Source: Candidatus Doudnabacteria bacterium
GTDB lineage: Bacteria; Patescibacteriota; Doudnabacteria; UBA920
Assembly (NCBI GenBank): GCA_023245955.1
Contig: JAHFJI010000003.1
Location: forward strand, 1-38,486
Length of the DNA: 38,486 bases
Direction of reading: 5' to 3'
The notes below the pieces were generated by a model, which saw only the letters and a list, made by a program, of their open reading frames with translations, had not been told where the DNA came from and ran no database searches. Shown here piece after piece: positions 1 to 25,151 of the stretch (positions within the stretch are counted from its first letter, which is position 1; the number at the start of each line of letters is the position of its first letter). The position numbers were made by a program, and so were the translations under genes.

Positions 1-1
1 G

Positions 2-490
2 AGAAAGTTCAACAACCATTTTGGAGCCACTTTCCCGGAACCAAAGAATCACTTACTCAAGCCGTTACGCATCATGAGTCTTAAAGACCCGAGTAAAAAA
101 ATGAGCAAGACTCATGACGAACCGCTTTACTTAGATGACTTACCAGCTGAACTGGAAAAAAAGATTAAAAAAGCGGTTACGGCAACTAGTGGTAACGGAG
201 AATCCCTTGGAGCAGAAAACTTACTTTATTTACTCTCTCAGTTCGGTACCCAGGAACACATAGCACAGTTCGCAAGTGCCAAAAAAGATGGCTCTATCAA
301 ATATAGTGAGATTAAAACAGTACTAGCAGAAAGCATCGCCAACCACTTTGCGGACTTCCGAGAAAAGAAAAAAGAACTTCTTGCCAGACCAGACAGACTT
401 GCTCAGATACTTGGTGACGGCGCGCACAAAGCCCGCGAGGTAGCAAGTGCGACACTCACAGAAGTCAAACAAAAAATTGGACTGCTCTAG
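2..490 (+). CDS. trpS: Tryptophanyl-tRNA synthetase, C-terminal part (runs off window start)
   Basis: Frame open from base 2 (RKFNNHFGATFPEP...RIMSLKDPSKKMSK). KMSKS-type motif and the typical TrpRS end (IL.DGA.KAR.VA..TL.EVK..IGL). Confidence 0.95.
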   Translation, partial: RKFNNHFGATFPEPKNHLLKPLRIMSLKDPSKKMSKTHDEPLYLDDLPAELEKKIKKAVTATSGNGESLGAENLLYLLSQFGTQEHIAQFASAKKDGSIKYSEIKTVLAESIANHFADFREKKKELLARPDRLAQILGDGAHKAREVASATLTEVKQKIGLL

Positions 491-504
491 CAGTCCAATT
501 TTTT
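471..504. terminator. Intrinsic terminator hairpin after trpS
   Basis: aaaaaattggactgct-ct-agcagtccaatttttt, perfect 16-bp arms including A/T tracts. Confidence 0.75.
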
Positions 505-526
505 AAACCCTATCAACTCACCGCCT

Positions 527-621
527 TGTCATTGCGAGGAGGCTTTGCGACGTGGCAATCTATACTTATAATTTAGACGGGTTGGATTGCTTCTCCGCCA
601 GCTGGCGGATTCGCAATGACA
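527..621. repeat. RPE/REP-like palindromic element (TGTCATTGCGA...TCGCAATGACA)
   Basis: 11-bp terminal inverted repeats, inner gcaatc/gattgc pair and tccgccagctggcgga hairpin; lies between convergent genes. Confidence 0.8.
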
Positions 622-641
622 GAGCATACGTGCATCACATC

Positions 642-1445
642 TTACCTAGCCTTACTCAACAACGCTCGAATAACTTTTTTTGTCGCCTCTATGTTAGCTA
701 CAGACACGTAGTCTACTCCGGTTTTTACCACTGCGTAGTCGTTACCGCCAGGAAATATGGCGTCCCCCACAAAGACCATGTCTTTAATTTTTACCCGTAC
801 GTATTTTTGAATTTGCCGAATGCCGTAGGCTTTGTCGGCTCCTTTTTTTGTAACATCTATAGAAGTAAAACCAGCGGCGTGGACTGCTAAATTGGGTAAA
901 TATTTCTGCATAAGTGTAACTATTCGCATTTTGGTTTTAATATGTTTGCGCCCCCATTGTTCCTTAAGCAACACACCTTTCCTTCCCAGAACAGTAACTG
1001 CATCCTGCCCGAAAACCGAAAAAGTTACTTCGGTCTTGCGGTCTTCTATTAGCTTACCGTAGGTTTTTTTTGGCTCTTTATAACCAATTTCTGCAAACAC
1101 TTTTTCAAATGTCTGTTTAATTTTTACTCGCTGCAACTTTGTAAGTGGGTGGGTGTATACTTGCTGCCACCCATGGTGGTGTTTATAAAATGCTGCAGCT
1201 GTAGTTGGGAACAAAAAAAGATTGTCTAACAAAACTCCCCGGTCAGTTAACTTCCGCAAAAATAAATCCTGGAAAACCGCGTATTTACCCCCACCAATAA
1301 TTGCCACTTTTTTTGTAGCAAGTAATTGGCTAAACAATGTAGCCATTTCTCTGTCCACAGGTGACTTAGTACGTATGAGTGTGCCGTCTAGGTCGAACAC
1401 AATTACTTTTTTTGGCTTAAGTTTTTCTGGATGTGTAACTTTCAT
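642..1445 (-). CDS. HAD-superfamily IIB hydrolase, phosphomannomutase-like
   Basis: FDLDGTL motif I, K-AYGI, and FVGDAIFPGGND motif characteristic of PMM-like HAD IIB enzymes. Confidence 0.88.
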   Translation of the reverse strand: MKVTHPEKLKPKKVIVFDLDGTLIRTKSPVDREMATLFSQLLATKKVAIIGGGKYAVFQDLFLRKLTDRGVLLDNLFLFPTTAAAFYKHHHGWQQVYTHPLTKLQRVKIKQTFEKVFAEIGYKEPKKTYGKLIEDRKTEVTFSVFGQDAVTVLGRKGVLLKEQWGRKHIKTKMRIVTLMQKYLPNLAVHAAGFTSIDVTKKGADKAYGIRQIQKYVRVKIKDMVFVGDAIFPGGNDYAVVKTGVDYVSVANIEATKKVIRALLSKAR

Positions 1446-1549
1446 ATGTAACTGTATGTACTCCGATAATTTTTGACCCTGCTCTATCTACATAAATAGT
1501 ATATACTGCCTTGGCGAAGTTACAAATTTCCTTTACACTATATAATAAT

Positions 1550-1576
1550 ATGTCATTTCAAATTGGCATAGCGTGA
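1550..1576 (+). pseudogene. Orphaned native 5' end of ychF (MSFQIG-IA*) at the left junction
   Basis: ATG TCA TTT CAA ATT GG joins to 8956 onward to give MSFQIGIVGLPNVGKST, a canonical YchF N-terminus. Preceded by TACACT/TATAAT -10-like boxes. Confidence 0.88.
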
Positions 1577-1703
1577 ACACAACCAGACATCTTATTCCAT
1601 TCGAGTTTAATATAAAAATCCCAAACCACATTTGGAAAGTTAATGCCTCCAGGGGCATTACTGGCAAATTTGAGAGGGTTAAACAAAAATAGGCTCTTGT
1701 AGC

Positions 1704-2144
1704 CTATTTTGTTTTATCAGTTGAGGTTAAAATCAATTTCCCTTCGGGTTTAGTCCAATCTGTAAATCTCCACCAATTTGGAACAAACAAGAAGCACACA
1801 TAATTTTCACCAACCGATTTGCCAAGTTTTTCTGGAAATTTGCCATGATAGACATTCTCGTACAAATCAGCTTCGCTATCTTTTATCAACCTAGCTATTC
1901 CATCCATTTGAAAAGTCTTCATATTGGCCTCGTTAGAACCGATAACTATGGATGCTCTGGTTTCTTGTTTACCAAACAATGGTTCGCTTTTTTTATAACG
2001 CTTATCAGTTTCAAAGAAAAACATCAATGGGTCATCTTGATGAGCAAAATGAACAGTTGCAGCATGAGGCGCGCCATCCATCATTTCCACCGCCAAAACA
2101 CAAATTCGTTGACTGGATATGTAATCTAAAATTTCCTTGCTCAT
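1704..2144 (-). CDS. Pyridoxamine 5'-phosphate oxidase-like (FMN-binding split barrel) protein
   Basis: CVLAVEMMDGAPHAATVHF...FFETDKRYKK and QMDGIA patterns fit the PNPOx-like family. Confidence 0.75.
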   Translation of the reverse strand: MSKEILDYISSQRICVLAVEMMDGAPHAATVHFAHQDDPLMFFFETDKRYKKSEPLFGKQETRASIVIGSNEANMKTFQMDGIARLIKDSEADLYENVYHGKFPEKLGKSVGENYVCFLFVPNWWRFTDWTKPEGKLILTSTDKTK

Positions 2145-2599
2145 AAATATGCTTTTAACTTATCAGCGTATGGTTTCTTTTCTTCCATAGTTGGCCAATA
2201 GGTATCTTTATGGTTCAAATAAAGATTGTCATCCTTATATCGAGGATAAATATGAAGATGATAATGCCATACATCTTGATTACCTGCTGGTTCGTTGTGT
2301 TGTCTTGTAGACACCCCATCACATAGATATGCCATTTTGAAAGCGACTGCGATACGCTTTGATAAATCAAAAATTTTATGGCCAATTTCTTCGGGTAAAT
2401 CGTAAAGGTTTTCTATATGTTGATTTGGAACAATAATTACATGGCCTGGATTTGACCTCCACCATTTACCAGCAATAAAGGCCGTTAACAACTCGTCCCT
2501 AAAAACAACGCTGCCTTCTTGGCTTCCATATTCGGTCGGTTCACCCTTGGCAATCTGACATAACGGACAAATATATTTTTGCGGTTCGTGGTTATACAT
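2141..2599 (-). CDS. HIT family hydrolase
   Basis: CPLC N-terminus, GHVIIVP, AGNQDVWHYHLHIYPRY histidine triad. Confidence 0.93.
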   Translation of the reverse strand: MYNHEPQKYICPLCQIAKGEPTEYGSQEGSVVFRDELLTAFIAGKWWRSNPGHVIIVPNQHIENLYDLPEEIGHKIFDLSKRIAVAFKMAYLCDGVSTRQHNEPAGNQDVWHYHLHIYPRYKDDNLYLNHKDTYWPTMEEKKPYADKLKAYL

Positions 2600-2712
2600 A
2601 TGAGAATGATAGCAAAAAATGCCTTTTTAAGCGATTTCTTATCACGAGTCCATAATGTTTACTATTTACCTAGTTTATGACAAAATTAGGGTAATTTTAA
2701 GACCATAACAGC

Positions 2713-4440
2713 ATGAAGCTTATATACCAAAAAGACTATATTTCTATTCACAAGTTCAACCCTATTGAGTTGCCAAATTTTGTTGTCCTTACAGGAGTAA
2801 ATGGTTCAGGCAAAAGCCACTTATTAGAAGCAATTGCTAATAAATCTATAGTCCTAGAAGGGGAAGAAAACGCCAAAGTTATACGATTTGATTATAGAGA
2901 TTTTTATTTAGAAAACGAGGCAGCTTATAATGCCCGTCAAATTATTGACGACAGAACAAATGCTTGGAACTTTTTCCAAAACAATATACAAAACCAAATT
3001 AAATCATTTAGGGATAGCCTTGCTCCTGATTATGAAAAATTAGCTGAAATATCTCGCATAAATTTCAAAAACTTTCTTGACCTAAAAGAAACGGATATTA
3101 ACGAGACGGCTCTTTTTGATAAATATAAACAATATAAAACAAACTTCCGTAATTTCGCTAACCAAGAAAATCATAGAAATAATCAGCAAGCGCTGGGTGT
3201 TTTTCCTATTGCCTATAGTATTCCATATAGCTTGGATGAACTTGAAAAAGAACAGTTTGATTATTTATATAAACCATATCAATTCAAAAATGATTTCTTA
3301 CCTCAACAATTGGGTAAAGTTATTTGGGACTACCAAATAAAATATCGAACAAACGAAATAAATGAATTTGAAAATGAAAAACACGGAAAAAATTACCCTG
3401 TTATTTCCGAAGAGGACTTTATAAAATTACATGGTTCAAAACCTTGGGAAATACTAAACAGTATCCTTGAAAAATTCGGAACGATTGAATATAGATTACC
3501 TTCTCCCGAAGGAAGTGATTATTATAGCGATTTTCAGTTTAGATTGGAGCATCCCAACAAACACTTAAAAATAGATTTTTCGTCCTTGTCTTCTGGTGAA
3601 AAAGTGCTAATGGCACTTGTTGCATCGATATACAAAGCATCTTCTGACCAGCATTTCCCGGACATTTTATTGTTGGATGAAATTGATGCATCACTACATC
3701 CTTCAATGATAAAAAATTTGCTGGACACTATGAACGATATTTTTCTTAAAAATGGGACTAAAGTAATTCTAGTTACTCACTCTCCTACAACCGTAGCCCT
3801 AGCCCCCGAAGACTCAATATATGTTATGAATAAATTGGGAGAAAGTCGTATTGAAAAGAAAAATAGGAACGATGCGTTAAGTATTTTGACCGAAGGTTTT
3901 GCTACCTTAGAAGAAGGTCTTAAAATTTTTGACGAAATAAGTAAACAAGATATATCAATTATTTCCGAAGGTAAAAATGTTGAGTTGATAAAAAAAGCGT
4001 TAGAATTAAACGAGATTAAAGATATTGATGTCATTACTGGTGTAGAGGGAAATTCGGGCGATAGCCAATTAAGAACGATTTTCGATTTTTTATCCAAAAT
4101 CCCTCATCAGAAAAAGGTAATTATTGTTTGGGACTCTGATGTAAAATATATCCTGCAAGCACAAAATAGCACTTATCCCTTCATTTTCCCTGTAAACCCT
4201 GGTAATAAGTTAGCGGAACGAGGAATTGAAAATTTATTTGCCAAAGAATTATTTTCAAATTTTATCACAACTGTGAAAGACTCTAAAGATAAAGAGTTAA
4301 AAAAGTTTGACTCTAACAGAAAGAGTGATTTTGTAAATTTAATTATATCTAGAAATAAAAAAGATGATTTTGCAAACTTTAAGCCTCTATTAGATAAAAT
4401 CGAGGAAATAAGAAAACAAAATGGCAGCTCCAAAGGGTAA
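2713..4440 (+). CDS. ABC-type (AAA_15/AAA_21) ATPase with C-terminal TOPRIM-like domain, OLD-family-like
   Basis: Walker A GVNGSGKS, signature LSSGE, Walker B LLLDE, H-loop VTHSP; downstream ISEGK...VWDSD...GIENLF fit TOPRIM motifs. Confidence 0.8.
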   Translation: MKLIYQKDYISIHKFNPIELPNFVVLTGVNGSGKSHLLEAIANKSIVLEGEENAKVIRFDYRDFYLENEAAYNARQIIDDRTNAWNFFQNNIQNQIKSFRDSLAPDYEKLAEISRINFKNFLDLKETDINETALFDKYKQYKTNFRNFANQENHRNNQQALGVFPIAYSIPYSLDELEKEQFDYLYKPYQFKNDFLPQQLGKVIWDYQIKYRTNEINEFENEKHGKNYPVISEEDFIKLHGSKPWEILNSILEKFGTIEYRLPSPEGSDYYSDFQFRLEHPNKHLKIDFSSLSSGEKVLMALVASIYKASSDQHFPDILLLDEIDASLHPSMIKNLLDTMNDIFLKNGTKVILVTHSPTTVALAPEDSIYVMNKLGESRIEKKNRNDALSILTEGFATLEEGLKIFDEISKQDISIISEGKNVELIKKALELNEIKDIDVITGVEGNSGDSQLRTIFDFLSKIPHQKKVIIVWDSDVKYILQAQNSTYPFIFPVNPGNKLAERGIENLFAKELFSNFITTVKDSKDKELKKFDSNRKSDFVNLIISRNKKDDFANFKPLLDKIEEIRKQNGSSKG

Positions 4441-4750
4441 TACAAACGCTATTGGAAACAGTGGCGGCAAAACAGTTAATGACCGAAAACTGGCTGCTGA
4501 AATCAGAGGCTTAGCCTTAAAGAAAATCAAAGTAATTTTGAAAGGCAAAGAGTCAGAATTTCAGAGGCAGATTTTGTTGCGTCTTGCTGGTAGTGTATTA
4601 CCTCGTCTCAAAGAAGCCGATAGTGTTTACGAACCGCCTATCATAATGTTTGACCCTGCTTTTAAGCCAGTGGTCTTGGAAAAGCGCGTATTAGAAAACA
4701 GAATAATGGATGATGATTTGAGTTCCCAAGCTATGCGAAAACAGCTATAA
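4421..4750 (+). CDS. Hypothetical protein with terminase-small-subunit-like N-terminus
   Basis: MAAPKGNTNAIGNSGG resembles the APKGNxNAxG motif of many phage small terminases; overlaps the upstream stop. Confidence 0.55.
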   Translation: MAAPKGNTNAIGNSGGKTVNDRKLAAEIRGLALKKIKVILKGKESEFQRQILLRLAGSVLPRLKEADSVYEPPIIMFDPAFKPVVLEKRVLENRIMDDDLSSQAMRKQL

Positions 4751-4789
4751 TGTAAATACAATTTAATGCCTAAACCTGTAGTAATATAG

Positions 4790-4938
4790 GCATGGCGCTA
4801 AAAACTCATGACAATACTGAACCCTACGTTCAGCTACTTGTCATGAGTCGTACCTCGAAAGGGGTGCGGGGCTGCAAAGTCCATGCTGGCGTGGGGCTTT
4901 GTGTTCCTGCCAGCGGAAACACTTAAAAGGCATGGACT
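4790..4938 (+). promoter_or_regulatory. Candidate structured leader RNA (multi-stem, GAAA tetraloop, alternative pairing over the start codon)
   Basis: Stems 4804-4814/4838-4848, 4817-4822/4828-4833 and 4849-4856/4861-4868 (GAAA loop). 4878-4886 is complementary to 4930-4938, which contains the ATG. Confidence 0.5.
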
Positions 4939-5324
4939 CAAAACAATTTATAAATGATGAAGTATTAAAAATAGACAATCGTCTATTTTGCGCACGCATT
5001 ATCGGTTACTCTGTTAGTTACTTTTTAATTTCTTGGTGGCTTAACAGCATTAGGACAACTGCCTCACTTTGGATTGTCTGGCCATTGATAATAATCCAAT
5101 TTGTATTATATTTTTCAATTTTTTATACGAGCTATTCGCGTTCAAAGGTTTTTGGTCTCAATAAGACTCTAGCGCTTATTATTTTTGTCGTACTTACTGT
5201 TGTGGGTAGAGTTAATGACTGGGAAGTATTGGTTATACCTCTTTTGGCTGTTGTTATGATTATTCTCTCGTCTCGAAATAAAAAGGTTTCTAAAGAGTGG
5301 CTATCTACTCAATCCGAAAAATAG
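4932..5324 (+). CDS. Small integral membrane protein (about 4 TM)
   Basis: Four hydrophobic segments; start moved to ATG 4932 (MDSKQF), preceded by aaaagg. Confidence 0.7.
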   Translation: MDSKQFINDEVLKIDNRLFCARIIGYSVSYFLISWWLNSIRTTASLWIVWPLIIIQFVLYFSIFYTSYSRSKVFGLNKTLALIIFVVLTVVGRVNDWEVLVIPLLAVVMIILSSRNKKVSKEWLSTQSEK

Positions 5325-5332
5325 CATACTAT

Positions 5333-5599
5333 ATGTCAGAAGACGGAAATTGCACACATGTCAGACAAGGAACTGTAATGATAGGTTATAGTCCTAAAAA
5401 GGACTCCCTATTGTATAAAATGTCAGCCTGCCTCGATTGTGGCCTGTATATGGACTCATTGGGTCATTTGGCTAGTTTTGAGCAGGATGCATCAGAAGAG
5501 CTTGGCAGAGAATGGAAATGGAAAGAAACGCATATGACGGCACAAGAATTGGAGAGTTGGCGACCAGAAGACAATACACGCATAGTCTGTATTCCATAA
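5333..5599 (+). CDS. Hypothetical protein, possible Zn-binding (CxH...CxxC)
   Basis: MSEDGNCTH...ACLDCG; follows the upstream stop by 8 nt. Confidence 0.55.
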   Translation: MSEDGNCTHVRQGTVMIGYSPKKDSLLYKMSACLDCGLYMDSLGHLASFEQDASEELGREWKWKETHMTAQELESWRPEDNTRIVCIP

Positions 5600-5708
5600 A
5601 TCCCTTCCTAATTTGGCCTTATTTGCATGGGTAATTGAGTTTACTCAATGATTTTAGATTATCCCAAATTATCACCAAATGTTAGAATGATTAAAATAAT
5701 ACTTTTCT

Positions 5709-6401
5709 ATGAGGTTAAAGTATTCAAAATCTAACGAGCTGTGGCATCGGATTATTGTAAGAAAAAAGGTGCGGGAGCTGGTCGAAAAATTCCGAACAGA
5801 ATGGAACATACCTAAGTATGGTTTTGACGATGAAGAAAAAACAAAAAAATTCATGCTTGAAAATAGAGGAAAATTTTGGAAGCCTCTCAATGAATACATT
5901 AAGCAGTGCAGAGAGGATATAAGTTTTCCAAATGATGCTCAATTTCAATATGAAATGATATGGCATTTTATCAATGGCCACGCAGACGGCGAAGGATTAA
6001 ATTTCACTGGATGCGATTTAGATTTGAGCAACTACAACAAAGATGGGACAATTGCTATTAAAATTGGTGTTAATTCAACCGCGGAAGATGTAAAAGATTT
6101 TATAAATAGCAAAAAAGGCTTCATTGTCGCATTGCAAAAAGATTATAGGAAAAAACACAATCTTAAAACTTCAAAAATTAGGAGCAGTAATAACAGGAGT
6201 AGGGATGCTTTAATTTATTACTTTGCTCAAAGACCAATAAATGAACTTTACCAAGCTGTCTTAAACAAAGACCCTGATTATGTCAGGCCTGGTTATAAAG
6301 AAGCAATCATAAAGAAACTTTTAGAAGAATTTAGGATAAAAATTAACGATACAGAAATCAAAATGATAATAAGTCGTCAAAGAAAACTACGAGACAAGTA
6401 A
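5709..6401 (+). CDS. Hypothetical protein (230 aa), basic C-terminus possibly DNA-binding
   Basis: Long ORF in AT-rich DNA followed by terminator-like hairpins; no family recognised. Confidence 0.7.
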   Translation: MRLKYSKSNELWHRIIVRKKVRELVEKFRTEWNIPKYGFDDEEKTKKFMLENRGKFWKPLNEYIKQCREDISFPNDAQFQYEMIWHFINGHADGEGLNFTGCDLDLSNYNKDGTIAIKIGVNSTAEDVKDFINSKKGFIVALQKDYRKKHNLKTSKIRSSNNRSRDALIYYFAQRPINELYQAVLNKDPDYVRPGYKEAIIKKLLEEFRIKINDTEIKMIISRQRKLRDK

Positions 6402-6456
6402 CACTTATGTTGTCTACATAAGTGTAGGTATATTGCAGTTTCAATATCGTGTTTAA

Positions 6457-6485
6457 TAAATCCATAGTGAAGACTATGGTTTTTT
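6457..6485 (+). terminator. Putative intrinsic terminator
   Basis: ccatagt-gaag-actatgg followed by a T run. Confidence 0.55.
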
Positions 6486-6497
6486 AATTTCATAGAT

Positions 6498-6570
6498 TTC
6501 CTGAGGTAAATCCCGCTAGGGATTTGGACAGCCCAACCTCAGGAACTGTCCAAGTCCTCAGCGGCATTTA
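6498..6570. other. Non-coding hairpin with loop-pairing (pseudoknot or switch potential)
   Basis: 6507-6531 pairs with 6546-6570; loop segment acctcaggaa (6536-6545) is the perfect complement of ttcctgaggt (6498-6507). Confidence 0.55.
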
Positions 6571-7003
6571 TTTTACTCTTACAGCTTAAATCTAGGCTTT
6601 AAGCGCAAGGTAAATCCTTGCGTCGCCCCAATCTCTACGAGATAGCCTGCGGACGATAAATGGCAGGTGGCAAGTGTGCCAGATAACGGAATACTCATCT
6701 GTTGCAGACAAAGGCAACGAGCGAAGCGTTAATCTTCGCCGCCGAATATCACAACATTATTACCAGATTACTACATAAATAAGAATGGACTGCAAAGATA
6801 GGAAACGGCTCGTGGGTGGTGGGGCTAAGTAAGACAATAGCAAAACAATATGCGAAACAAGCACTACAAAACTAAATGTTTTAGATTATCCGATGAAATT
6901 TCGGCGGAGCTTAAAGCATCACGAGAACTATCGAAGTTATCTTGGAACTTATATTTCAAAGCAATGCTCAAAAAAGCACAAAAGCAAAATAGGGATAACA
7001 AGC

Positions 7004-7153
7004 ATGAGAAAGAAGCCAAAAAATAAGTTAAAACTGCCTGAACTTGATTATATCTTTTCAGACAAGAATGCCCAGCGTCTCAACGCCGCTTTTGATATTA
7101 TATTTGAAGAAACTCTAAAGACTTTTGGTAATTTGACAACTAAGAACAATTAG
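7004..7153 (+). CDS. Small hypothetical protein (49 aa) upstream of the xis-int pair
   Basis: MRKKPKNKLKLPELDYIFSDKNAQRLNAAFDIIFEETL; internal ATG of ORF 6893-7153 preferred. Confidence 0.5.
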   Translation: MRKKPKNKLKLPELDYIFSDKNAQRLNAAFDIIFEETLKTFGNLTTKNN

Positions 7154-7168
7154 GAATATAATAACTTC

Positions 7169-7348
7169 ATGGAATTTATGACCTTAGAACAAGTGGCCAA
7201 ATACTTTGGGGTTCACCCTCGCACTGTTATGCGCTGGCTTCAACAGGGTAGTCTTAAGGGCTATAAGTTGGGCAAAGGCAAAACTGCCCTACTTCGTATA
7301 CCTAAAATTGAGGTTAAAAGATTTTTAGATAAACACAAAATAAAATGA
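7169..7348 (+). CDS. Excisionase-like MerR/HTH_17 DNA-binding protein (59 aa; not in ORF track)
   Basis: Translated by hand: MEFMTLEQVAKYFGVHPRTVMRWLQQGSLKGYKLGKGKTALLRIPKIEVKRFLDKHKIK*; ATGA overlap with the integrase start. Confidence 0.9.
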   Translation: MEFMTLEQVAKYFGVHPRTVMRWLQQGSLKGYKLGKGKTALLRIPKIEVKRFLDKHKIK

Positions 7349-8997
7349 ACCTGACAATCGAAAAACCAATTAAGTTGATTGCTACCTACGCTCGTGTATC
7401 TGATAACCCTGATGAAGAAGAAGGAAGTATAAAAAATCAGGCAATGACTTTTAACGAACTTGCCGAAAAAAATAACTGGCAGATAGTCGAAGAGTATAAA
7501 GACGACGATTGGAGCGGCGATTTTTTAGAGCGACCTGCGCTTGATAAACTGCGCCTTGATGCAAAGAATAAAAACAAGGTTTGGGAAGCCGTGCTTATTT
7601 ATGACCCCGACCGATTAGCTCGCCGTTATTCCTACCAAGAACTTGTAATGGATGAATTAAAAGAAGCAGGGGTGGAAGTTATATTTGTAACTGTTCAAGC
7701 TCCAAAAAACCAGGAAGATAAAATTTTGCATGGAGTTAGAGGGTTGTTTGCCGAATATGAAAGAGCCAAAATAGCTGAAAGATTTAGACTTGGTAAACTT
7801 CGCAAAGTCAGAGAAGGTCATATTCTAACAACTAAACCTTTGTATGGTTATAATTACATTCGCAACAACAAAGAAACCAAGCAACACGGATATTATGTTA
7901 TTGAACCAGGTGAGGCCAAAGTTGTTAAAATGATATTTTCTTGGGTAGCTAATGACGGCCTGACATTGAGAACGATTGTAAAGAAACTTCAACTTCTCGG
8001 CATTAAGCCACGCAACAGCAAGCGAGGTGTATGGAATACAAGCACACTTAGCACAATGTTACGACATAGAGGATACATAGGTGAAGCGCACTATGGAGCT
8101 TCTTATGCAGTCGTTCCTGAAAATCCACTCAAAAATGAAAAGTATAAAAAATTAAAAAAGACCAGTCGCAGATTAAGACCAAAAGAAGAATGGATAATAG
8201 TTCCCATTCCCCCACTCATCCAACCAGATATGTTTGAACAAGCTGGTAATAGATTAAAAGAAAATTTTGCTTTGTGCCAGAGAAACAGAAAAAACGAATA
8301 CTTACTTGCCAACAAAATATATTGTGCCTGTGGCAAGCATAGACACGGAGAAGGATATTATAATAAACCCAATCGGTATTACCGTTGTGATGACAGAGTG
8401 TTAAATTTTCCACTTCCTGCTCAATGTAAAGAAAAAGGTGTTAATGCTGTTTTGGCCGATAAACTTGTTTGGAACAAAATTTCAGGCTTAATGAGCTCAC
8501 CAGAATTGATGAAAGAACAAGTAAGTCGTTGGTTTAAGGGCAGACAAACAAAAGCTCAATCAGAACTAGTTGATACACAGGCTTTAGAAAAAGAGAAGCA
8601 AAAACTATCTGAACAAATGGAACGCTACAATAAGGGTTATGGGGCAGGCATATTCGACCTAGAGCAGTTAAGGGCATACATCTCTCCTCTTAGGCAAAGG
8701 ATGGCTCAAATCGATAACCAAATCGTAACTGCAAAAAATCATCTTAGCCAAACACAATTAGAAGAGCCCAATAAGCAACAAATGGAGAACTTCGCAGAGA
8801 AAGCAAAGAAGACCTTGCAGGGCTTGAAATTTGAAGCTAAAAGAGAGATAATAGTCAATACTGTCGAGAAAGTTATAGCTACTAAACAATTCTTAAAAGT
8901 AACGGGCTTCGTCCCAGTCACTAATCCAAATGTCCAGTTCATCTCACTCCATCGGAATTGTGGGGTTGCCGAATGTTGGCAAGTCTACCCTCTTTAA
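7345..8997 (+). CDS. Large serine recombinase (integrase)
   Basis: YARVS catalytic Ser, RPALDKL, DRLAR, recombinase domain (YGY...YIG), Zn ribbon CACG...YYRC...C and coiled coil. Last 13 aa are read from ychF DNA in another frame. Confidence 0.96.
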   Translation: MNLTIEKPIKLIATYARVSDNPDEEEGSIKNQAMTFNELAEKNNWQIVEEYKDDDWSGDFLERPALDKLRLDAKNKNKVWEAVLIYDPDRLARRYSYQELVMDELKEAGVEVIFVTVQAPKNQEDKILHGVRGLFAEYERAKIAERFRLGKLRKVREGHILTTKPLYGYNYIRNNKETKQHGYYVIEPGEAKVVKMIFSWVANDGLTLRTIVKKLQLLGIKPRNSKRGVWNTSTLSTMLRHRGYIGEAHYGASYAVVPENPLKNEKYKKLKKTSRRLRPKEEWIIVPIPPLIQPDMFEQAGNRLKENFALCQRNRKNEYLLANKIYCACGKHRHGEGYYNKPNRYYRCDDRVLNFPLPAQCKEKGVNAVLADKLVWNKISGLMSSPELMKEQVSRWFKGRQTKAQSELVDTQALEKEKQKLSEQMERYNKGYGAGIFDLEQLRAYISPLRQRMAQIDNQIVTAKNHLSQTQLEEPNKQQMENFAEKAKKTLQGLKFEAKREIIVNTVEKVIATKQFLKVTGFVPVTNPNVQFISLHRNCGVAECWQVYPL

Positions 8998-10012
8998 CGC
9001 CATTACTAAGAGTAAGGTTGAAGCTGCCAACTACCCTTTTGCGACCATAGACCCAAATGTGGGCGTGGTTAGCGTACCCGACGAACGGTTAGCAAAACTG
9101 GCCGAGCTAGAAAAAAGTGAAAAAATAGTCCCTACAACAATTGAGTTTGTAGACATTGCAGGCCTTGTTAGTGGTGCCCACAAAGGCGAAGGTCTGGGCA
9201 ACCAGTTCCTCTCTCACATTCGCGAAGTAGACGCTATTATGGAAGTGGTACGAGTGTTTGAGAACGATGACATTATCCATGTATCGGGTAAGGTAGACCC
9301 GGTAAGTGATATGGAAACCATAGCCATAGAACTGCAACTCGCCGATCTACAAACCGTAGACAAGAGGCTGGAGTCCGTAGCCAAACAAGCAAAAACCGGT
9401 GACAGAGAGTTTATAGTGAAAAAACAAGTCTTGGAAAAGTACAAAGCTGCACTAGAAACCGGACAAATGGCCAACACAGTTGTGCTTACAGAAGAAGAAA
9501 AAGCTAATAGCAAAGACACCCAGCTACTCACAAATAAACCCTTCCTCTACATCGCCAACTCAGAGTTTGATATGTCACATAAGACCTATACGTCATATAC
9601 GACCAATAGGAAGGATATGATTCCAGTGGATGCAAAGCTTGAGAGCGAACTCTCAGAGCTAACAGACGAAGAACGTGCAGAGTACCTCTCTGAGCTCGGC
9701 CTACCCGAAAGCGGACTAGATAAAATTATCAAAGAAGCCTACAAAACTCTGGGCCTTATCACTTTCATTACCGCCGGACCTAAAGAAAGTAAAGCCTGGA
9801 CTTGCATCAATGGCTCCAAAGCACCTCAGGCCGCAGGCAAGATACACACCGACTTTGAAAAAGGGTTCATCCGCGCGGAAGTTATCCAGTGGGACAAACT
9901 CCTAGAAGCCAACGGGTATGTAGGTGCAAAAGAGCGAGGCTGGCTTCGCGTAGAAGGCAAAGAGTATATCGTCCAAGACGGCGACGTGGTGCATTTTCGG
10001 TTTAATGTATAG
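8930..10012 (+). CDS. ychF: Redox-regulated ATPase YchF (Obg family)
   Basis: GIVGLPNVGKSTLFN, ANYPFATIDPN, DIAGLV, GEGLGNQFL, TGS domain AAGKIHTDFEKGFIRAE. Confidence 0.98.
   Translation: MSSSSHSIGIVGLPNVGKSTLFNAITKSKVEAANYPFATIDPNVGVVSVPDERLAKLAELEKSEKIVPTTIEFVDIAGLVSGAHKGEGLGNQFLSHIREVDAIMEVVRVFENDDIIHVSGKVDPVSDMETIAIELQLADLQTVDKRLESVAKQAKTGDREFIVKKQVLEKYKAALETGQMANTVVLTEEEKANSKDTQLLTNKPFLYIANSEFDMSHKTYTSYTTNRKDMIPVDAKLESELSELTDEERAEYLSELGLPESGLDKIIKEAYKTLGLITFITAGPKESKAWTCINGSKAPQAAGKIHTDFEKGFIRAEVIQWDKLLEANGYVGAKERGWLRVEGKEYIVQDGDVVHFRFNV
9570..9619 (+). repeat. 9-bp periodic repeat inside the ychF coding sequence
   Basis: atatgtcac/ataagacct/atacgtcat/atacgacca/ataggaagg/atatg; related array on the minus strand at 14760-14800. 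Confidence 0.6.
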
Positions 10013-10023
10013 CAACTTACAGA

Positions 10024-10563
10024 ATGGAACCGAAGCTTGAAGCTATCCAAAAACTAATATCACACGTGCATAATAACAATTATGCGGGTTTTCTTGTCTC
10101 CGGCCATACCAATACTGTTACAGAATCCCTACTGCAAGATAACTGGAAAATACAATACCCAAGCGAAACCATGCCTCCCGTTTTTTCTTTCGACGGGGAG
10201 GCCAACACGATACTCTACAAAAAAGATATGAGCGAAGAAACGCGAGTCAAAGAGGCGCAAAGCATAATAACCCGGTCGTTTCCTAATCTTAATGCACATA
10301 AAGATGACAAGCTGTGCTACGTGGACGAGACTATTAACAGCGGATACAAATACGAACGCCTGAAAGATATTTTTAAAAAACTTGGTTTCAATCACGTAGA
10401 CTTTGCCTTCTTTGCCGGCATGGAAAATCATGAATATGACAACGAAGTCTTTATAGGTGTCAAAGACGATGAGCTTACCGGAAGATTTGTCATTGAGTCT
10501 CTAGCAATACACGGATACGAATCAGACGTAAATAAAGTCCTGCCCAAAAACGCACTACGGTAA
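10024..10563 (+). CDS. Hypothetical protein, phosphoribosyltransferase-like
   Basis: LCYVDETINSG resembles the PRPP-binding loop (hhhhDDhhxSG). Confidence 0.5.
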   Translation: MEPKLEAIQKLISHVHNNNYAGFLVSGHTNTVTESLLQDNWKIQYPSETMPPVFSFDGEANTILYKKDMSEETRVKEAQSIITRSFPNLNAHKDDKLCYVDETINSGYKYERLKDIFKKLGFNHVDFAFFAGMENHEYDNEVFIGVKDDELTGRFVIESLAIHGYESDVNKVLPKNALR

Positions 10564-10731
10564 GAGGAACTACCGAATATTTAACTATTGACATAGTGTG
10601 TTTTCGGCTTAATGTATAAGATGGCTAGCAAAATCTTCATACACATATTTAAAAAATTCTCGATTTTTAAGCGAGGACTTTTTACTTTCACAAACGCGGT
10701 AACATCTGCAGCAAACAAAAGCACTGACGAG

Positions 10732-10974
10732 TTAGGGGTCGTCAGTGCGAAAGATGCACGCCACTAGCCAATAGCCAAAAGTGGCACCGCCCAGTATTGT
10801 TCTAGCTTCATCGAAATCAAGAAGCCAAGAAACATAACCAACTAGGCCGCCCACCAAAAGGCTACAAGCAATCCTTTGAGCCATTCCGGGAGGAAGGCCG
10901 ACAAGAAACGTCTGTACCCCAGCAATGGTTGCACCAACCAACAAAGTTAGCAGAAATATATAGTCTTCTCCCAA
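10732..10974 (-). CDS. Small membrane protein (about 3 TM)
   Basis: Hydrophobic ORF with TTG start preceded by a strong GAGGAGG SD. Confidence 0.5.
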   Translation of the reverse strand: MGEDYIFLLTLLVGATIAGVQTFLVGLPPGMAQRIACSLLVGGLVGYVSWLLDFDEARTILGGATFGYWLVACIFRTDDP

Positions 10975-10991
10975 AACCGCCCTCCTCTCGA

Positions 10992-11315
10992 TTATGGGAT
11001 AGTCGCGTCAGCTAGGGCGCGACTCCTCCAGCCAGATATAGCTGCGGCATCGCAGGCTTGGACTTGTAAAATCAGGCACTGGTGGGCTTCTCGGAAACCT
11101 GACTCTGCGCGGATGGCTTTGTCTCTCGCTCGAGCCGCACGCCCAACGTTAACGAGTAGACATACTTTCACAGGTGATACACCTATGAAAGCTGCTATGG
11201 TTTTAGCCGCCACATAAAGCCCGCCCGCCACGATACACAATCCAAGACAAATGGCTACTCCATAGCCAATTGTTCTACCAGAGAAATCGTCCAAATCATC
11301 TGGGTCGGTAATCAT
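10992..11315 (-). CDS. Small hypothetical membrane protein
   Basis: ATG preceded by AAGGAGG; one or two hydrophobic segments. Confidence 0.5.
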   Translation of the reverse strand: MITDPDDLDDFSGRTIGYGVAICLGLCIVAGGLYVAAKTIAAFIGVSPVKVCLLVNVGRAARARDKAIRAESGFREAHQCLILQVQACDAAAISGWRSRALADATIP

Positions 11316-11490
11316 AGAAAACCTCCTTGAAATTCAAGCTACCCCTATAGTAGTTGAATAGAGGTATGGTAAACGTTTGATTTATTTTTGCATAGTAAGC
11401 CCACTAGGCAAAATCAAAAAAACCTGGTAGAATAGTAGTAACTTGTTGTAAATAAGCGGTTTATGACAAACAACTACGTAATTAACTCTA

Positions 11491-11567
11491 TTTTCTGCTT
11501 TGAGAGTATAGGTACGCAATAGCTATCTAAGCCCAAAATAAGCAGAAATGAAAGGAAATCTTTCATG
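11491..11567 (+). promoter_or_regulatory. Putative rpsF leader structure (S6:S18-type autoregulatory RNA candidate)
   Basis: tttctgctt/aagcagaaa stem enclosing an inner stem and CCC; atgaaag/ctttcat hairpin covers the RBS and start. Confidence 0.4.
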
Positions 11568-12083
11568 CCACGATACGAGCTGTGCTACATTCTGGCTGCG
11601 CAAGTGAGCGACGACCAGGTGCCAACTGTGACCAAACAAATTAAGCAATTTGTTGCTGACTTTGGCGGTACCGAGATACAAGAAGAGCAATTAGGTAAGA
11701 AAAAGCTTAGCTACCCTATTAAGAAAACCAGAAATGGTTTTTATGTAGTGGTAGAGTTTACTATGGACAGCAGAAAAGTAAACGAACTAGAAGCCAAAAT
11801 TCGCACCCAAACTGCCACCATTATTCGCCACTTGGTTATAAACATAGACGAGCATGCCCGCAGAAGTGCTATAGACAAAGTGGTACAAAGCACGCTTTCC
11901 AAAAACCCGGAAGAGGAAGAAGAACAGGCTCCTGCAAAAAAAGCTCCTACTCCAAGACCTGCCCCTAAAGCAGAAAAAGTAGAAGCTGAGCCAACTACTC
12001 CAAAAGCTGAGCCAGTAGAAATTTCCTCAGAAGAACTAGACAAAGAAATAGAAGCAGCCTTGTCTGAAGATATTATAAAATAA
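11565..12083 (+). CDS. rpsF: 30S ribosomal protein S6 with long acidic/Pro-rich tail
   Basis: MPRYEL...LGKKKLSYPIKK...GFY...IIRHLV; first gene of rpsF-ssb-rpsR. Confidence 0.96.
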   Translation: MPRYELCYILAAQVSDDQVPTVTKQIKQFVADFGGTEIQEEQLGKKKLSYPIKKTRNGFYVVVEFTMDSRKVNELEAKIRTQTATIIRHLVINIDEHARRSAIDKVVQSTLSKNPEEEEEQAPAKKAPTPRPAPKAEKVEAEPTTPKAEPVEISSEELDKEIEAALSEDIIK

Positions 12084-22099: not shown

Positions 22100-23086
22100 A
22101 TGCCCACAGAAGAGTCACAATTTGAAATAATCCTTTTCTACAAGTACGTCCACATAGAAAGCCCAAAAAAGCTACAAAAGGCTCAAATGGAGCTTCAGAA
22201 TAGGCTTGGACTCAAAGGCCGTACACTCATTGCAAGCGAAGGCATCAATGCCACCATAGAGGGTACCAAAGAAAACATTGACTTGTACTTACAGGAATTT
22301 TTAAGCGACCCTAGATTTACCACTACACACATAAAAAGAAGCCCCGGTACCGGTAAAGCCTTTGCCAAATGCTTCGTTCGCATTAAACCAGAGATTGTAT
22401 CTCTGGGACTTGCGTGCGACATAGACCCCAATAAGCAAACGGGTAAGCGACTATCCCCAGAAGAACTACATGACTGGATACACGAGGGTAAAAAATTCTA
22501 CATTGTAGATATGCGCAATGCCTACGAGCACTTGGCCGGGCACTTTAAAGGCTCCGTCCTACCGGCCATGGATAACTTTCGAGAGCTACACAAGTTTCTA
22601 GACTCGCTCGCCCACCTAAAAAATCAAACAGTAGTAACTGTGTGTACTGGGGGCGTGAGGTGCGAGAAGGCCTCTGGATATCTCCTTGCGAACGGCTTTG
22701 CAGACGTCTATCAACTAGATGGCGGTATAGTAAGCTACATGGAACAATTCCCCAATGAAGACTTTTTGGGCAAACTATATGTATTTGATGAGAGAATGCT
22801 CATAGGCTTCTTTACGGATGACCCTAAGCATCAAGTAGTCGGCCAGTGCATCGTCTGTAGTAAGCCTTGTGAGCGCTTTACCAACTGCATAGACATAGAT
22901 TGCCACAGACAAACCATAGCCTGCCTAGAGTGCGAGCGGGGTAAAGGTCTAGATTTCCTCTGCCGTAGTGGCTGTAAAGAAAAAACTCGCAAGAATTCTA
23001 TATACAAGCTTCGTGACTACTTAAAAGATGCCCATCTAGACACATTCTTAACCAAACTCAAAAGTTTATTCTATCAATATAAATAA
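22100..23086 (+). CDS. trhO: tRNA uridine(34) hydroxylase TrhO / UPF0176 rhodanese-domain protein
   Basis: LFYKY, GR.LIA.EGINAT, D.RN.YE...GHF, CTGGVRCEKAS, QLDGGI..Y, GKLYVFDER. Confidence 0.9.
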   Translation: MPTEESQFEIILFYKYVHIESPKKLQKAQMELQNRLGLKGRTLIASEGINATIEGTKENIDLYLQEFLSDPRFTTTHIKRSPGTGKAFAKCFVRIKPEIVSLGLACDIDPNKQTGKRLSPEELHDWIHEGKKFYIVDMRNAYEHLAGHFKGSVLPAMDNFRELHKFLDSLAHLKNQTVVTVCTGGVRCEKASGYLLANGFADVYQLDGGIVSYMEQFPNEDFLGKLYVFDERMLIGFFTDDPKHQVVGQCIVCSKPCERFTNCIDIDCHRQTIACLECERGKGLDFLCRSGCKEKTRKNSIYKLRDYLKDAHLDTFLTKLKSLFYQYK

Positions 23087-23111
23087 CCCCGACTCTGAGT
23101 CGGGGTTATTT
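23081..23111. terminator. Bidirectional terminator
   Basis: aaataaccccgactc-t-gagtcggggttattt. Confidence 0.85.
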
Positions 23112-23352
23112 ATATTGAGACTAATTTTTCTTTTTTAGCCTTAGACCAGCGTTTTATTTCTGCTTCTCTTTTTAGAGCTTCACCCGTAGTCTTAAACTTT
23201 TCTGAGTATACAATTTTTCCACCCCCGTGGGCCCACACGTACTTAGAACCCTTACCCGCATTATGTACTTGTTCCCTATTTTTAAGATCTTTGGTGCTAC
23301 CGCTATAAAGCGAACCGTCTTTACACCTAAAAAGATAGAAATTGTACGCCAT
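23110..23352 (-). CDS. GIY-YIG nuclease (UPF0213/YazA-like)
   Basis: YLFRCKDGSLYSGST.DL..R...HNAGKGSKY, ALKREAEIK. Confidence 0.92.
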   Translation of the reverse strand: MAYNFYLFRCKDGSLYSGSTKDLKNREQVHNAGKGSKYVWAHGGGKIVYSEKFKTTGEALKREAEIKRWSKAKKEKLVSI

Positions 23353-23358
23353 GGGTTG

Positions 23359-23616
23359 CTATTGATGGTTGTCTATTTTAAAAATTATTAGGTCGCCAGC
23401 CTGGTTAAAGACTCCAAGAGCTCTAAATTGTTTATTTATTCGAAAATACCAGATACCACTACCTTTTGGATTTCTTTCTTTAAATCTCACACGCAAAGAC
23501 TCGCCTTGTAACAAAAATAGTTTAGCTTTCTTGTACTGTTGCAATAAGCCACGAGCTTCCAAATATGGCAGTATGTCCTTATGCTCAAATATGCTAATTA
23601 TTTTAGGCATGTTCAC
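23359..23616 (-). CDS. Putative RelE/ParE-fold toxin
   Basis: Basic 85 aa; GIWYFRINKQFRA...IDNHQ; downstream of a Phd-like gene. Confidence 0.7.
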   Translation of the reverse strand: MNMPKIISIFEHKDILPYLEARGLLQQYKKAKLFLLQGESLRVRFKERNPKGSGIWYFRINKQFRALGVFNQAGDLIIFKIDNHQ

Positions 23617-23619
23617 TTA

Positions 23620-23877
23620 TTAAATATTAATAAGCTCTTTTTGTTTTAGTTTACTTGCCAATTTTGCTTCCTTTTTCAAACTCTCACTAACTTCACTGGC
23701 CTGTAATTCCACAAGCTTAGGGGCGAGAAAACTTTCTTCATACACATCAATATCCACCAACACTGCAATTGGTTTATTATTCACCAATATATATTTGGGA
23801 TTTCTTTGCAAGCCCTGTAAAGACTTTTTGGTTTTTGTTCGTAAGTCTGTAACAGAAATAAATTGGTCTCTTAACAT
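23620..23877 (-). CDS. Phd/YefM-like antitoxin
   Basis: ISVTDLR.KT...PKYILVNNKPIAVLVDID.YE. Confidence 0.8.
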   Translation of the reverse strand: MLRDQFISVTDLRTKTKKSLQGLQRNPKYILVNNKPIAVLVDIDVYEESFLAPKLVELQASEVSESLKKEAKLASKLKQKELINI

Positions 23878-23900
23878 AGCAGTAAATATAGTTATAAATT

Positions 23901-23920
23901 TAGTATTATATTTAATACTA
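23901..23920. promoter_or_regulatory. Palindromic operator candidate for the TA operon
   Basis: tagtatta-tatt-taatacta directly upstream of the antitoxin. Confidence 0.45.
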
Positions 23921-23963
23921 CTATTTTATCCTATTTACTAGATTTGTCAAGGCGACGGCCTTA

Positions 23964-24248
23964 CTACTCCTGGCAAATTATGAGCCCTACTGCCACGCAG
24001 TGCTGGCAAAATAAGTCTTTTCTAGAACTGCAAGTACACTTCCACTTTATGCCTTTTGGAGTAGACAACACATCTACCGTGCGAGTCTGGGAGTTTCTAA
24101 ATTCTACGCGAGCGGTCATGTGTAGCACATCCGACTGGCTAAAGCTAACCACCCCATTTTTAGCGATATCCTTACCCAAGCGAAAGTTAGACCTAGAAGC
24201 TAGATCCTTTAGTAACTCCTCTGTGACTTCAGTTTTGATAGGTTGCAT
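23964..24248 (-). CDS. SWIM zinc-finger protein
   Basis: CTC...FCQHCVAV. Confidence 0.85.
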   Translation of the reverse strand: MQPIKTEVTEELLKDLASRSNFRLGKDIAKNGVVSFSQSDVLHMTARVEFRNSQTRTVDVLSTPKGIKWKCTCSSRKDLFCQHCVAVGLIICQE

Positions 24249-24307: not shown

Positions 24308-25039
24308 ATGTTTAAAATAAAAGCACATACAAAAAGAAAAATTCGTAGGGGCACTAAATTGGTAACTAAGTTAATAGAAGCCACTGGCATCCCAGACGGC
24401 TATTCTGCCACCATTGCCTGGTTTGCCGAACGCATGGTGTTGGCTTTCTTGTGCCTCATGGTCCTCTCCTTTGCCCTGGGTGTCATATTTGTGCTCAGAT
24501 GGTCGGAACCGATTGGCAACAGTAGATTTTATAATGCCGCAGCCACAACCACCGAAGAGGGTATCCGTACCTTCTCCCAGCAAGTCATAGATATTACCTC
24601 TCCTATATTGGCAGCCTTTGTAAAAGATAACCGCCAAGAAGTAGACCTAGTAGCCACAGAATTAGCCGTTCGTAAGAGCAAGCTAAAGGCCTACCTTATA
24701 AGCAAACATTCTCCCTTTGCAGACGACGAGACTACCTTAGATGCATTTGTGGCCTCCAAAAACATGCGCATGATGGTAGCTATCTCGTTTGTAGAAAGTA
24801 CCTACGGCCAACACTGTTACTACTATAATTGTAGTGGCATAGGTGGCACTCCCCCAACCCTCAGAAAATACAACAACTATGCCGAGTGGGTAAAAGACTT
24901 TGACCAGCTACTTGAAAAACGCTATAAAAATGTACCCCCAGAAAAGTTTATTGGCTTTTACGTGCAACCTGGAAGTCCCAACTGGATATATGGCGTCAAA
25001 CAAGTCCTCCGCGAATTCAACGAACAAGGCATTGAGTAA
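24308..25039 (+). CDS. Membrane-anchored protein with possible lysozyme-like/glucosaminidase domain
   Basis: One TM; AISFVESTYG...YNCSGIG resembles the lysozyme-superfamily catalytic Glu region. Confidence 0.55.
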   Translation: MFKIKAHTKRKIRRGTKLVTKLIEATGIPDGYSATIAWFAERMVLAFLCLMVLSFALGVIFVLRWSEPIGNSRFYNAAATTTEEGIRTFSQQVIDITSPILAAFVKDNRQEVDLVATELAVRKSKLKAYLISKHSPFADDETTLDAFVASKNMRMMVAISFVESTYGQHCYYYNCSGIGGTPPTLRKYNNYAEWVKDFDQLLEKRYKNVPPEKFIGFYVQPGSPNWIYGVKQVLREFNEQGIE

Positions 25040-25075
25040 TGCCGGAGTCTAAGTGTCCCCATAAAACTCCAACAG

Positions 25076-25112: not shown

Positions 25113-25151
25113 GATAACACTACTGTAGGTCAAGCAGCCCACGATGGATTT

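Follow-up and report, generated by a model that had tools for sequence, protein, structure and literature searches.

The 38,486-nucleotide contig JAHFJI010000003.1 of a Candidatus Doudnabacteria bacterium (assembly GCA_023245955.1; this whole stretch was analyzed and is called the window) carries an integrated element of 7389 bp at positions 1567–8955, recognized by its low GC content and the anatomy of its junctions. The element lies 15 nt into the coding sequence of ychF, the gene of a conserved translation-linked ATPase, and encodes a serine recombinase (int). Here, we propose that this element rebuilds the start of ychF from its own attachment site, supplies the transcription of the gene, and splits its own int gene upon integration. 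We consider this explanation, taken as a whole, to be highly likely.

Insertion of the element at the start of ychF

The two junctions were read in the regions 1400–1800 and 8700–9300. The left junction, attL, has the sequence atgtcatttcaaattGG followed by catagcgtga, with an ATG at 1550, the core GG at 1565–1566, and a stop codon (TGA) at 1574–1576. The right junction, attR, reads ATGTCCAGTTCATCTCACTCCATC-GG-aattgtggggttgccg, with an ATG at 8930 and the core GG at 8954–8955; from this ATG, ATGTCCAGTTCATCTCACTCCATC-GG-aattgtggggttgccgaat is translated as MSSSSHSI-GIVGLPN. The crossover falls at the GG dinucleotide, and this 2-bp core leaves each end of the element ambiguous by 2 nt. attL, attR, and the intact attB sites of relatives have nothing in common beyond the GG and a few bases next to it where the sequences switch. 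A 2-bp crossover by a serine integrase is expected to give such a pattern, without a long direct repeat, and the junctions point to recombination between unlike attP and attB sites. On the forward strand, the core and the attP right arm (CATAGCGTGAACACAACCAGACAT) occupy 1565–1590, and this arm is kept in other elements and in contigs with the attP form. The attP left arm and the core occupy 8930–8955, also on the forward strand, where they hold the ATG and seven further codons (MSSSSHSI) of a new YchF N terminus and, at the same time, int codons 529–537. The GC content is 0.32–0.39 over 1001–9000, compared with 0.44 and 0.47 in the flanking kilobases. One contig of the probable source run (5861–9004) spans attR. 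Among the sequencing-run contigs compared (contigs only), neither the joint 1566→8956 of an empty site nor the joint 8955→1567 of a circle was reported. Three contigs in run X1 that diverge before 8951 were considered as an empty site and rejected, as their consensus resembles the ychF starts of other organisms, not the attB of this strain.

The rebuilt ychF gene (8930–10012, forward strand) encodes an intact protein of 360 aa. The P-loop (GxxGxPNVGKS), the G domain (PF01926, MMR_HSR1; E 3e-23), and the YchF C-terminal domain (PF06071; E 4.8e-36) identify it as a YchF/OLA1 ATPase. The ATG at 8930, which is located within int, opens MSSSSHSIGIVG and continues into ychF in frame 2. It is the first start codon in the ychF frame after an in-frame stop at 8900–8902, and int (frame 1) and ychF overlap by 68 nt. 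The sequence-only reading of this stretch had claimed that the element supplies the ychF start and that the same ~25 bp serve as attachment arm, int coding sequence, and new YchF N terminus, and the frames and junctions agree with both points. We infer that the ATG at 8930 is used for initiation. The N terminus after integration would be MSSSSHSI-GIVGLPNVGKS instead of the native MSFQI-GIVGLPNVGKS, and the N-terminal peptide expected from YchF of the carrier is (M)SSSSHSIGIVGLPNVGK.

At the left end of the element, the displaced native 5′ end of ychF (1550–1576, forward strand) forms an 8-codon ORF, MSFQIGIA*, in which the ATG, the following four codons, and the GG core are derived from the host and the rest from the element. 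The native start yields only this peptide, and ychF is cut off from its native upstream region, as had also been claimed. The 17 nt from the ATG to the GG of attL are identical to the intact ychF starts of eight relatives at 13–16 positions, compared with only 11–20 of the 60 nt upstream. A HAD-hydrolase gene to the left of attL is the direct upstream neighbor of intact ychF in the loci of five relatives. In a set of 41 related genomes, 38 of which contain ychF, 30 ychF loci were compared; the native five-residue lead was found in 24 of them (22 MSF[QKS][IV]G, one LSFKIG, and one MALSIG), an eight-residue lead in five including the window, and one contig begins exactly at IGIVG. Judged by these comparisons, the reconstruction of attB from the two junctions is sound.

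The native start and upstream region of ychF are now 7.4 kb away, as would be the case if the insertion had inactivated the gene, leaving a decaying remnant downstream whose rescue is coincidental. This reading is extremely improbable and close to refuted. The ychF gene is intact and full length, it is the only copy (a single match in the 1.0-Mb genome), and it is 89% identical to that of a relative of the same genus. In addition, the same arrangement was found in 70 distinct junctions from very different hosts, with no broken ychF. As a separate observation, ychF of five related genomes (G009, G010, G013, G016, and G021) matches in two stretches within one open frame of 349–395 aa, split near residue 225, which suggests a lineage-specific insertion in the middle domain.

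Conservation of the supplied start codon in the element family

A total of 96 loci were analyzed: the window, one locus from the relatives, 14 genome contigs, and the best 80 of 232 relatives on metagenome contigs. The query for the metagenome-contig search was an alignment of 11 integrases, and the int of locus L049, which has an internal TGA, was left out of the integrase alignment. Among the relatives, G019 and G037 have a homologous integrase directly upstream of, and overlapping, ychF, and G021 has a fragment at a contig start. ychF overlaps the 3′ end of int in 74 of the 96 loci, giving 71 distinct junctions. The remaining 22 consist of 10 loci whose contig ends before or at the junction (three still show the ATG), eight attP forms (seven distinct), and four loci (two distinct) that have another C-terminal region and no recognizable site. 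Host YchF across the family loci is 43–92% identical to that of the window. The record labels, which are to be taken as labels only, name Saccharibacteria, Doudnabacteria, Nomurabacteria, and "Patescibacteria group," and some metagenome-assembled genomes are labeled Bdellovibrionales or Gammaproteobacteria. A degenerate pattern matched at least 5 of 401 genomes of the phylum; the pattern was written without GTG codons and missed the window itself.

The sequence-only reading had suggested checking whether homologous elements keep an in-frame ATG in attP, and they do so in 69 of the 71 distinct junctions, at 24 nt before the core in 67 and at 21 nt in two (L105 and L113). Of the other two, L118 has an in-frame TAA after the supplied ATG (the related L050 has TCA there), and an in-frame GTG 12 nt before the core is usable as the ychF start; L119 has a separate native-type ychF start (MNLSIG) ~100 nt beyond an attR-like remnant. 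None of the 71 distinct junctions leaves ychF without any start. The position before Gly, encoded immediately ahead of the core, is occupied by Ile or Val in every case; the restoration of Ile at this position in the window had been pointed out earlier. No decay of ychF was visible in 70 distinct junctions, where 35 ORFs are complete, 30 are open to the end of the available sequence, and five are shorter (267–318 aa); two of these shorter forms were checked, and both still align to the YchF C terminus.

The left arm itself was compared in 72 distinct sequences. A-24 and T-23 are invariant (72/72), and G-22, T-21, and C-20 are present in 69, 67, and 70 of the 72, respectively. The mirror of this ATGTC block, GACAT, occurs in 8 of 12 known right arms. 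As ATGTC is the most conserved block of the left arm and is mirrored in this way, the ATG is part of a probable recombinase recognition motif. Two points weigh against reading its conservation as selection for a start codon: recombinase binding could by itself explain the conservation of ATGTC, and the family loci are related to one another, so the counts do not represent independent events. In the corresponding alternative, the ATG is kept only as part of the recognition motif and serves as a start merely by good fortune, with ychF perhaps poorly expressed or dispensable in carriers. The conserved block and its mirrored counterpart are in line with this alternative, and ychF is non-essential in some bacteria; a pneumococcal deletion mutant grew normally (PMC6375853). 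Nevertheless, several facts make it improbable. The four attP forms that have no CAT in the right arm (L088, L114, L120, and L123) all retain the ATG in the left arm. The ATG of L105 and L113 is shifted by exactly one codon and is still in frame, and the stop after the ATG in L118 is followed by the in-frame GTG. Neither a junction without a ychF start nor a decaying ychF was found, and an embedded promoter-like site described below is under synonymous constraint. Moreover, the base before the left-arm ATG is free (A30, C15, G2, and T25), and the overlapping int codon consequently varies (Asn, Tyr, His, and Asp) while the AT stays. The free preceding base, the CAT-less attP forms, and the whole-codon shifts are suggestive of a constraint on the ATG beyond the recombinase motif, among loci that are related to one another.

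Several loci of the family deserve separate description. In L119 (4480–4790), the attR-like junction (MSSSKLTVGIVGLPNVG) stops after nine ychF codons, and a complete ychF with an intact-looking attB is found ~100 nt further on; this arrangement may have arisen by duplication of the target or may be left over from an earlier event. In L049 (= G037:C22), int at about 10001–11641 has one internal TGA, and the ychF junction and attL (MPLSIG, 11.4-kb element) are intact. L049 may be a locked element with a permanent ychF start. For seven longer elements, no left end was detected in the flanks searched (up to 10 kb; less for L045 and L055), and only the attL of L049 was added. L087/L097 and L117/L130 are close integrase relatives (55–56% identity) with a different C-terminal region and without the ATGTC arm or a downstream ychF; their target is probably a different one. 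In many cases, the end of a contig coincides with the int–ychF junction to within a few bases (e.g., G002:C15, G011:C27, G020:C39, and G038:C107; L044, L046, L066, and L083), a pattern that would be expected from mixed populations with occupied and empty sites or from repetition of the att region.

Putative transcription and translation signals of the rebuilt gene

Upstream of the displaced ychF start, a promoter-like site (GTTACA-16-TATAAT, 10 of 12) is present at 1519–1546 on the forward strand, in a region where seven such sites were found compared with 5.1 ± 2.3 in shuffles. The sequence-only reading had placed the native ychF promoter here (~1530–1546). This assignment is doubtful because the −10 hexamer ends only 3 nt before the ATG. 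Other weak promoter-like sites are located at 1473–1502. A sequence scan detected a terminator-like hairpin at 1686–1710 (forward strand), which would also stop transcripts from the native ychF upstream region.

Two sites within the element could supply transcripts of ychF in its present position. The first is a perfect sigma-70 consensus (TTGACA-18-TATAAT, 12 of 12) at 7133–7162 on the forward strand, just before a gene with a helix-turn-helix (HTH) domain that precedes int. It is likely the promoter of the HTH–int operon, and its transcripts would extend into ychF; the scan detected no terminator separating the two genes int and ychF. The second (TTGAAA-17-GATAAT, 10 of 12) is embedded in int at 8824–8852, also on the forward strand. 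The TTG of its −35 hexamer is the codon of Leu494, the ATA of its −10 hexamer is that of Ile502, and the −10 hexamer ends 77 nt before the ychF ATG. Of 59 distinct loci, 27 have a TTGAAx-17-xATAAT-like site in the corresponding position, with the −10 hexamer ending 68–83 nt before the ATG, and the density of sites there is 0.51 per locus per 100 nt, compared with 0.02–0.15 over most of int.

Several results weigh against assigning transcription and translation of ychF to these element signals. Promoter-like sites in 6400–10100 are not clearly above chance (11 compared with 6.9 ± 2.6 in shuffles), and the simple scan recovers the embedded site in less than half of the loci. None of the listed sequencing runs covers 1300–9300 as RNA, and the only metatranscriptome of the same sample (X3) had no match over 1–12000. 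Shine–Dalgarno-like motifs occur 4–18 nt before the new ATG in 4 of 71 junctions, no enrichment over the 15% of background windows. The depletion of ATG in the presumed leader gave the lowest value among 23 windows, yet another window is nearly as low. The hexamers of the embedded site also encode conserved residues (LKFE..KR.II), and synonymous codon choice was therefore tested.

The codon of Leu494 is TTG in 44 of 53 sequences, compared with 24% over 26 conserved Leu columns (next highest 56%), and that of Ile502 is ATA in 43 of 50, compared with 35% over 19 Ile columns (next highest 61%). Among 334 columns, the largest deficits of synonymous entropy are at V530 (GTC in 55 of 55, which provides the TC of ATGTC) and R537 (the core), followed by serine columns and then by L494 and I502. 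The deficits in the serine columns are an artifact of the AGY/TCN codon sets, and L494 and I502 are the strongest non-serine synonymous outliers outside attP. In the attP forms, TTG and ATA are each present in five of seven. These results support the option of an internal ychF promoter, which had been raised earlier, and the site at 8824–8852 is fairly likely to be an outward-facing promoter for ychF embedded in the int coding sequence.

Alternatively, ychF may be transcribed only by read-through from 7133–7162, and the site at 8824–8852 may owe its codon bias to something else, such as binding of the HTH protein or of the recombinase near attR. The perfect match before the HTH gene and the lack of a detected terminator between int and ychF favor this account, as do the score of the embedded site, only 10 of 12, and the ATAGT, not ATAAT, that several family members have at −10. 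We consider it somewhat unlikely. The two most strongly biased codons coincide exactly with the TTG of the −35 hexamer and the ATA of the −10 hexamer at a spacing of 17 nt, and the site, which points toward ychF, would serve no obvious purpose in the excised circle. Furthermore, L117, the sole alignable close relative that is not at ychF, has GTG and ATC at the two codons (n = 1).

As to translation initiation, no Shine–Dalgarno motif was seen by eye at the native ychF starts of any of eight relatives, and an ATG without such a motif is thus normal for this gene. Inspection by eye also showed no ATG between 8853 and 8929 in the window. The four junctions with Shine–Dalgarno-like motifs (L100, L127, L129, and L134) belong to a distant subgroup with strong motifs such as GAAGGAGG. 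In this subgroup (L100, L125, L127, L129, and L134), AAGGAG or GAAGGAGG is located 8–14 nt before the supplied ATG, within int codons, and may reflect adaptation to hosts relying on these motifs.

Division of the integrase gene

The integrated form of int (7345–8997, forward strand) encodes a large serine recombinase of 550 aa, of which residues 1–537 are encoded by the element and the last 13 (NCGVAECWQVYPL) by ychF in another frame. The catalytic domain (PF00239, Resolvase; E 8.4e-28) covers residues 13–159, and Y15, R17, V18, and S19 are invariant in 11 family members. A Recombinase domain (PF07508; E 7e-18) was also detected. The zinc ribbon (PF13408) scored 21.8 bits, under the cut-off of 25.3; nonetheless, C327, C329, C348, and C361 are invariant in the 11 members. 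A sequence search of solved structures with int matched the catalytic domain alone. An AlphaFold model of the full-length relative L123 (51-row alignment, mean pLDDT 76) has long helices at 381–466 and aligns to the full-length SPbeta and Bxb1 integrases. The protein thus shows the catalytic, Recombinase, and zinc-ribbon/coiled-coil features of large serine recombinases, and the family has the same domain order and fold as the SPbeta, Bxb1, PhiC31, and Listeria A118-type (LI) integrases.

Beyond the sequence-only reading, the junctions indicate that int itself is interrupted by the crossover. The second G of the core is the last base of the int codon CGG, and the attL right arm read in that frame from 1567 gives HSVNTTRH LIPFEFNIKIP..., with the stop codon located within the hairpin at 1686–1710. 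The severed 3′ end of int (1567–1692, forward strand) consists of 41 codons and a stop and includes the motif IPFEFNIKIP; only excision of the element as a circle would reunite it with int. A tail of 41–52 codons with the motif IPFxFxIK[LI]PPP is present in four integrated elements (41 codons in the window and 50–52 in the three others), and the same tail is contiguous with int in seven attP-form contigs. Although synonymous positions differ and the linker varies in length, the motif is retained. In these four integrated elements and seven contigs, attP lies within the int ORF, so integration alters the C terminus of the integrase. As read from these sequences, a conserved family-specific tail of 41–52 residues is replaced, in the window, by 13 residues from the out-of-frame ychF sequence. 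The length of this host-derived tail varies by host, with int–ychF overlaps of 44, 53, or 68 nt. The attP-form contigs carry type IV coupling-protein-like genes and methylase, NYN, AAA_25, KAP, and zeta-toxin domains and have no ychF within 3 kb, which fits free or plasmid-like forms.

In the L123 model, the C-terminal part consists of strands at 503–508 and 512–521, a low-confidence loop (523–547) that holds the crossover, and a strand at 548–557 in a block with a pLDDT of about 83. Foldseek/VIA-align comparison of the model, which reaches residue ~546 and stops short of the tail, gave Z scores of 17.2 for SPbeta, 14.0 for Bxb1, and 12.1 for LI integrase, and these proteins aligned only up to model residues 518–523, where their chains end. 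The solved integrases end before the crossover loop, and integration therefore appears to leave the canonical enzyme whole. Compared with them, the window family is predicted to add a disordered loop with the crossover and then a conserved extra strand. The integrated form of the integrase is plausibly active, as its canonical fold is apparently complete before the crossover in the model.

Other genes of the element and features of the window

The HTH_17 excisionase-like protein of 59 aa (7169–7348, forward strand) overlaps the start of int; it is found directly upstream of int in 60 loci and is a candidate directionality factor. A small ORF of 86 aa (6893–7153, forward strand) has a similar ORF at the same position before the HTH gene in 19 loci. 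The cargo includes a PNPOx-like protein assigned by Pfam (PF01243; 1704–2144, reverse strand), a HIT-family protein (PF01230; 2141–2599, reverse strand) that also matches the PADLOC model of the Thoeris HIT protein ThsC, and an ABC-type ATPase of 575 aa (AAA_21/AAA_15; 2713–4440, forward strand) that matches defense ATPases of the mad3, AriA, and PtuA types. These three genes may constitute a small defense cargo, and none of them was found in the other family loci compared. Elsewhere in the window, two more dips in GC content, at 23001–24000 (0.35) and 25001–26000 (0.38), are located near a tRNA-Glu gene (25682–25756, reverse strand).

Comparison with known systems

Rebuilding of the 5′ end of a target gene has precedents. 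A lacZ fusion demonstrated it for dusA islands such as IMEVchUSA3, and the same is stated for SXT/R391 at prfC, with Hochhut and Waldor 1999 given as the source (bioRxiv 10.1101/2021.06.18.448947; PMC2791158). Like these elements, the window element is inserted in a 5′ coding region and supplies an in-frame start and N terminus. In the known systems, a promoter of the element keeps the target gene expressed; the candidate for this role in the window element is the conserved promoter-like site with synonymous-codon constraint. The SXT/prfC and dusA systems use tyrosine recombinases with identical cores of greater length, and in them int and the rescued gene do not overlap. By contrast, the window element has a serine recombinase, a 2-bp core, a new start within the int frame, and apparently a promoter within the int coding sequence. 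As its integrase is a serine recombinase, the resemblance lies in the mode of working, not in descent.

For the division of int, the section on Myxococcus phage Mx8 in a review describes attP within int and an integration that produces a recombinant gene with a new 3′ end (PMC6070905). The location of attP in int is shared with the window family, whereas Mx8 Int is a tyrosine recombinase that uses other host sites and does not rebuild the start of a host gene. The primary papers on Mx8 are reportedly Tojo 1996 and Magrini 1999, which are named by the review.

Other elements have been connected with ychF. For a pneumococcal prophage located between dnaN and ychF, the level of ychF mRNA fell upon integration and rose upon excision (PMC6375853). 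That prophage is unrelated, its attB is intergenic, only a predicted −35 element is altered, and the coding sequence of ychF is left as it was. In Actinomycetota, ychF has also been named as an integration site of pipolins that carry large serine recombinases (bioRxiv 10.1101/2024.05.22.595293); the part of that account considered here makes no mention of a rebuilt start, an embedded promoter, or a split int. Pipolins are defined by a primer-independent PolB, and no polymerase domain was found in the 11 ORFs of the window element scanned against Pfam, which, as far as these ORFs go, places the element outside the pipolins. Our literature search found nothing on this family of ychF elements or its overlap design, nor on a serine recombinase in the ychF coding start; the supplements of large surveys of large serine recombinases might list ychF. 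The principle is thus known from SXT/prfC, the dusA islands, and Mx8, and what is new here is the rebuilding of a 5′ end by a serine-integrase element, the packing of three functions in 25 bp, the apparent promoter in int, and the self-splitting int.

Proposed mechanism and its implications

Based on these comparisons, we propose the following mechanism. The attP of the element would recombine at GG with an attB that consists of the first ~15 nt of ychF and the P-loop-coding stretch behind it. As the crossover falls inside codon 6 of ychF, the element must replace what is removed, and the attP left arm would do so by providing an in-frame ATG 24 nt before the core, giving MSSSSHSI-GIVGLPNVGKS. 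Transcription of ychF would then proceed from signals of the element, most likely from the embedded promoter at 8824–8852 in the last 170 nt of int, with read-through from the HTH–int promoter at 7133–7162 adding to it. The native upstream region would be left driving the 8-codon ORF, which ends before the hairpin terminator. The excised circle would encode an integrase with the conserved 41-residue tail, and the integrated copy one with the 13-residue host-derived tail.

These features can also be joined into a two-way switch, a tentative reading that we regard as rather unlikely. The integrase of the circle, with its extra C-terminal strand, would favor integration, and the tail-less integrated form would suit excision. 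With ychF under the promoter and start of the element, a host that lost the element imprecisely would be deprived of ychF, a form of hostage-taking or addiction by gene overlap. In this reading, the tail swap is presumed to have an effect. The family might also, in principle, be able to insert into nearly all bacteria, because the P-loop coding sequence that forms the attB right arm is almost universal. The split int provides a model, open to testing, in which a tail swap controls the directionality of a serine integrase; the precedent found, Mx8, is a tyrosine integrase.

The family represents a natural set of serine integrases with a highly conserved coding target and could serve as a source of genetic tools in bacteria that have few. 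Some 25 bp serve at once as recombination arm, as terminal part of an integrase, and as beginning of a host gene, and a whole family of elements in ultra-small bacteria of the candidate phyla depends on such packing. A shift of ychF expression on integration and excision has been demonstrated experimentally for the unrelated pneumococcal prophage next to ychF (PMC6375853). If the embedded promoter is real, the elements described here set the expression level of a conserved translation-linked ATPase, and their integration or excision would change that level.

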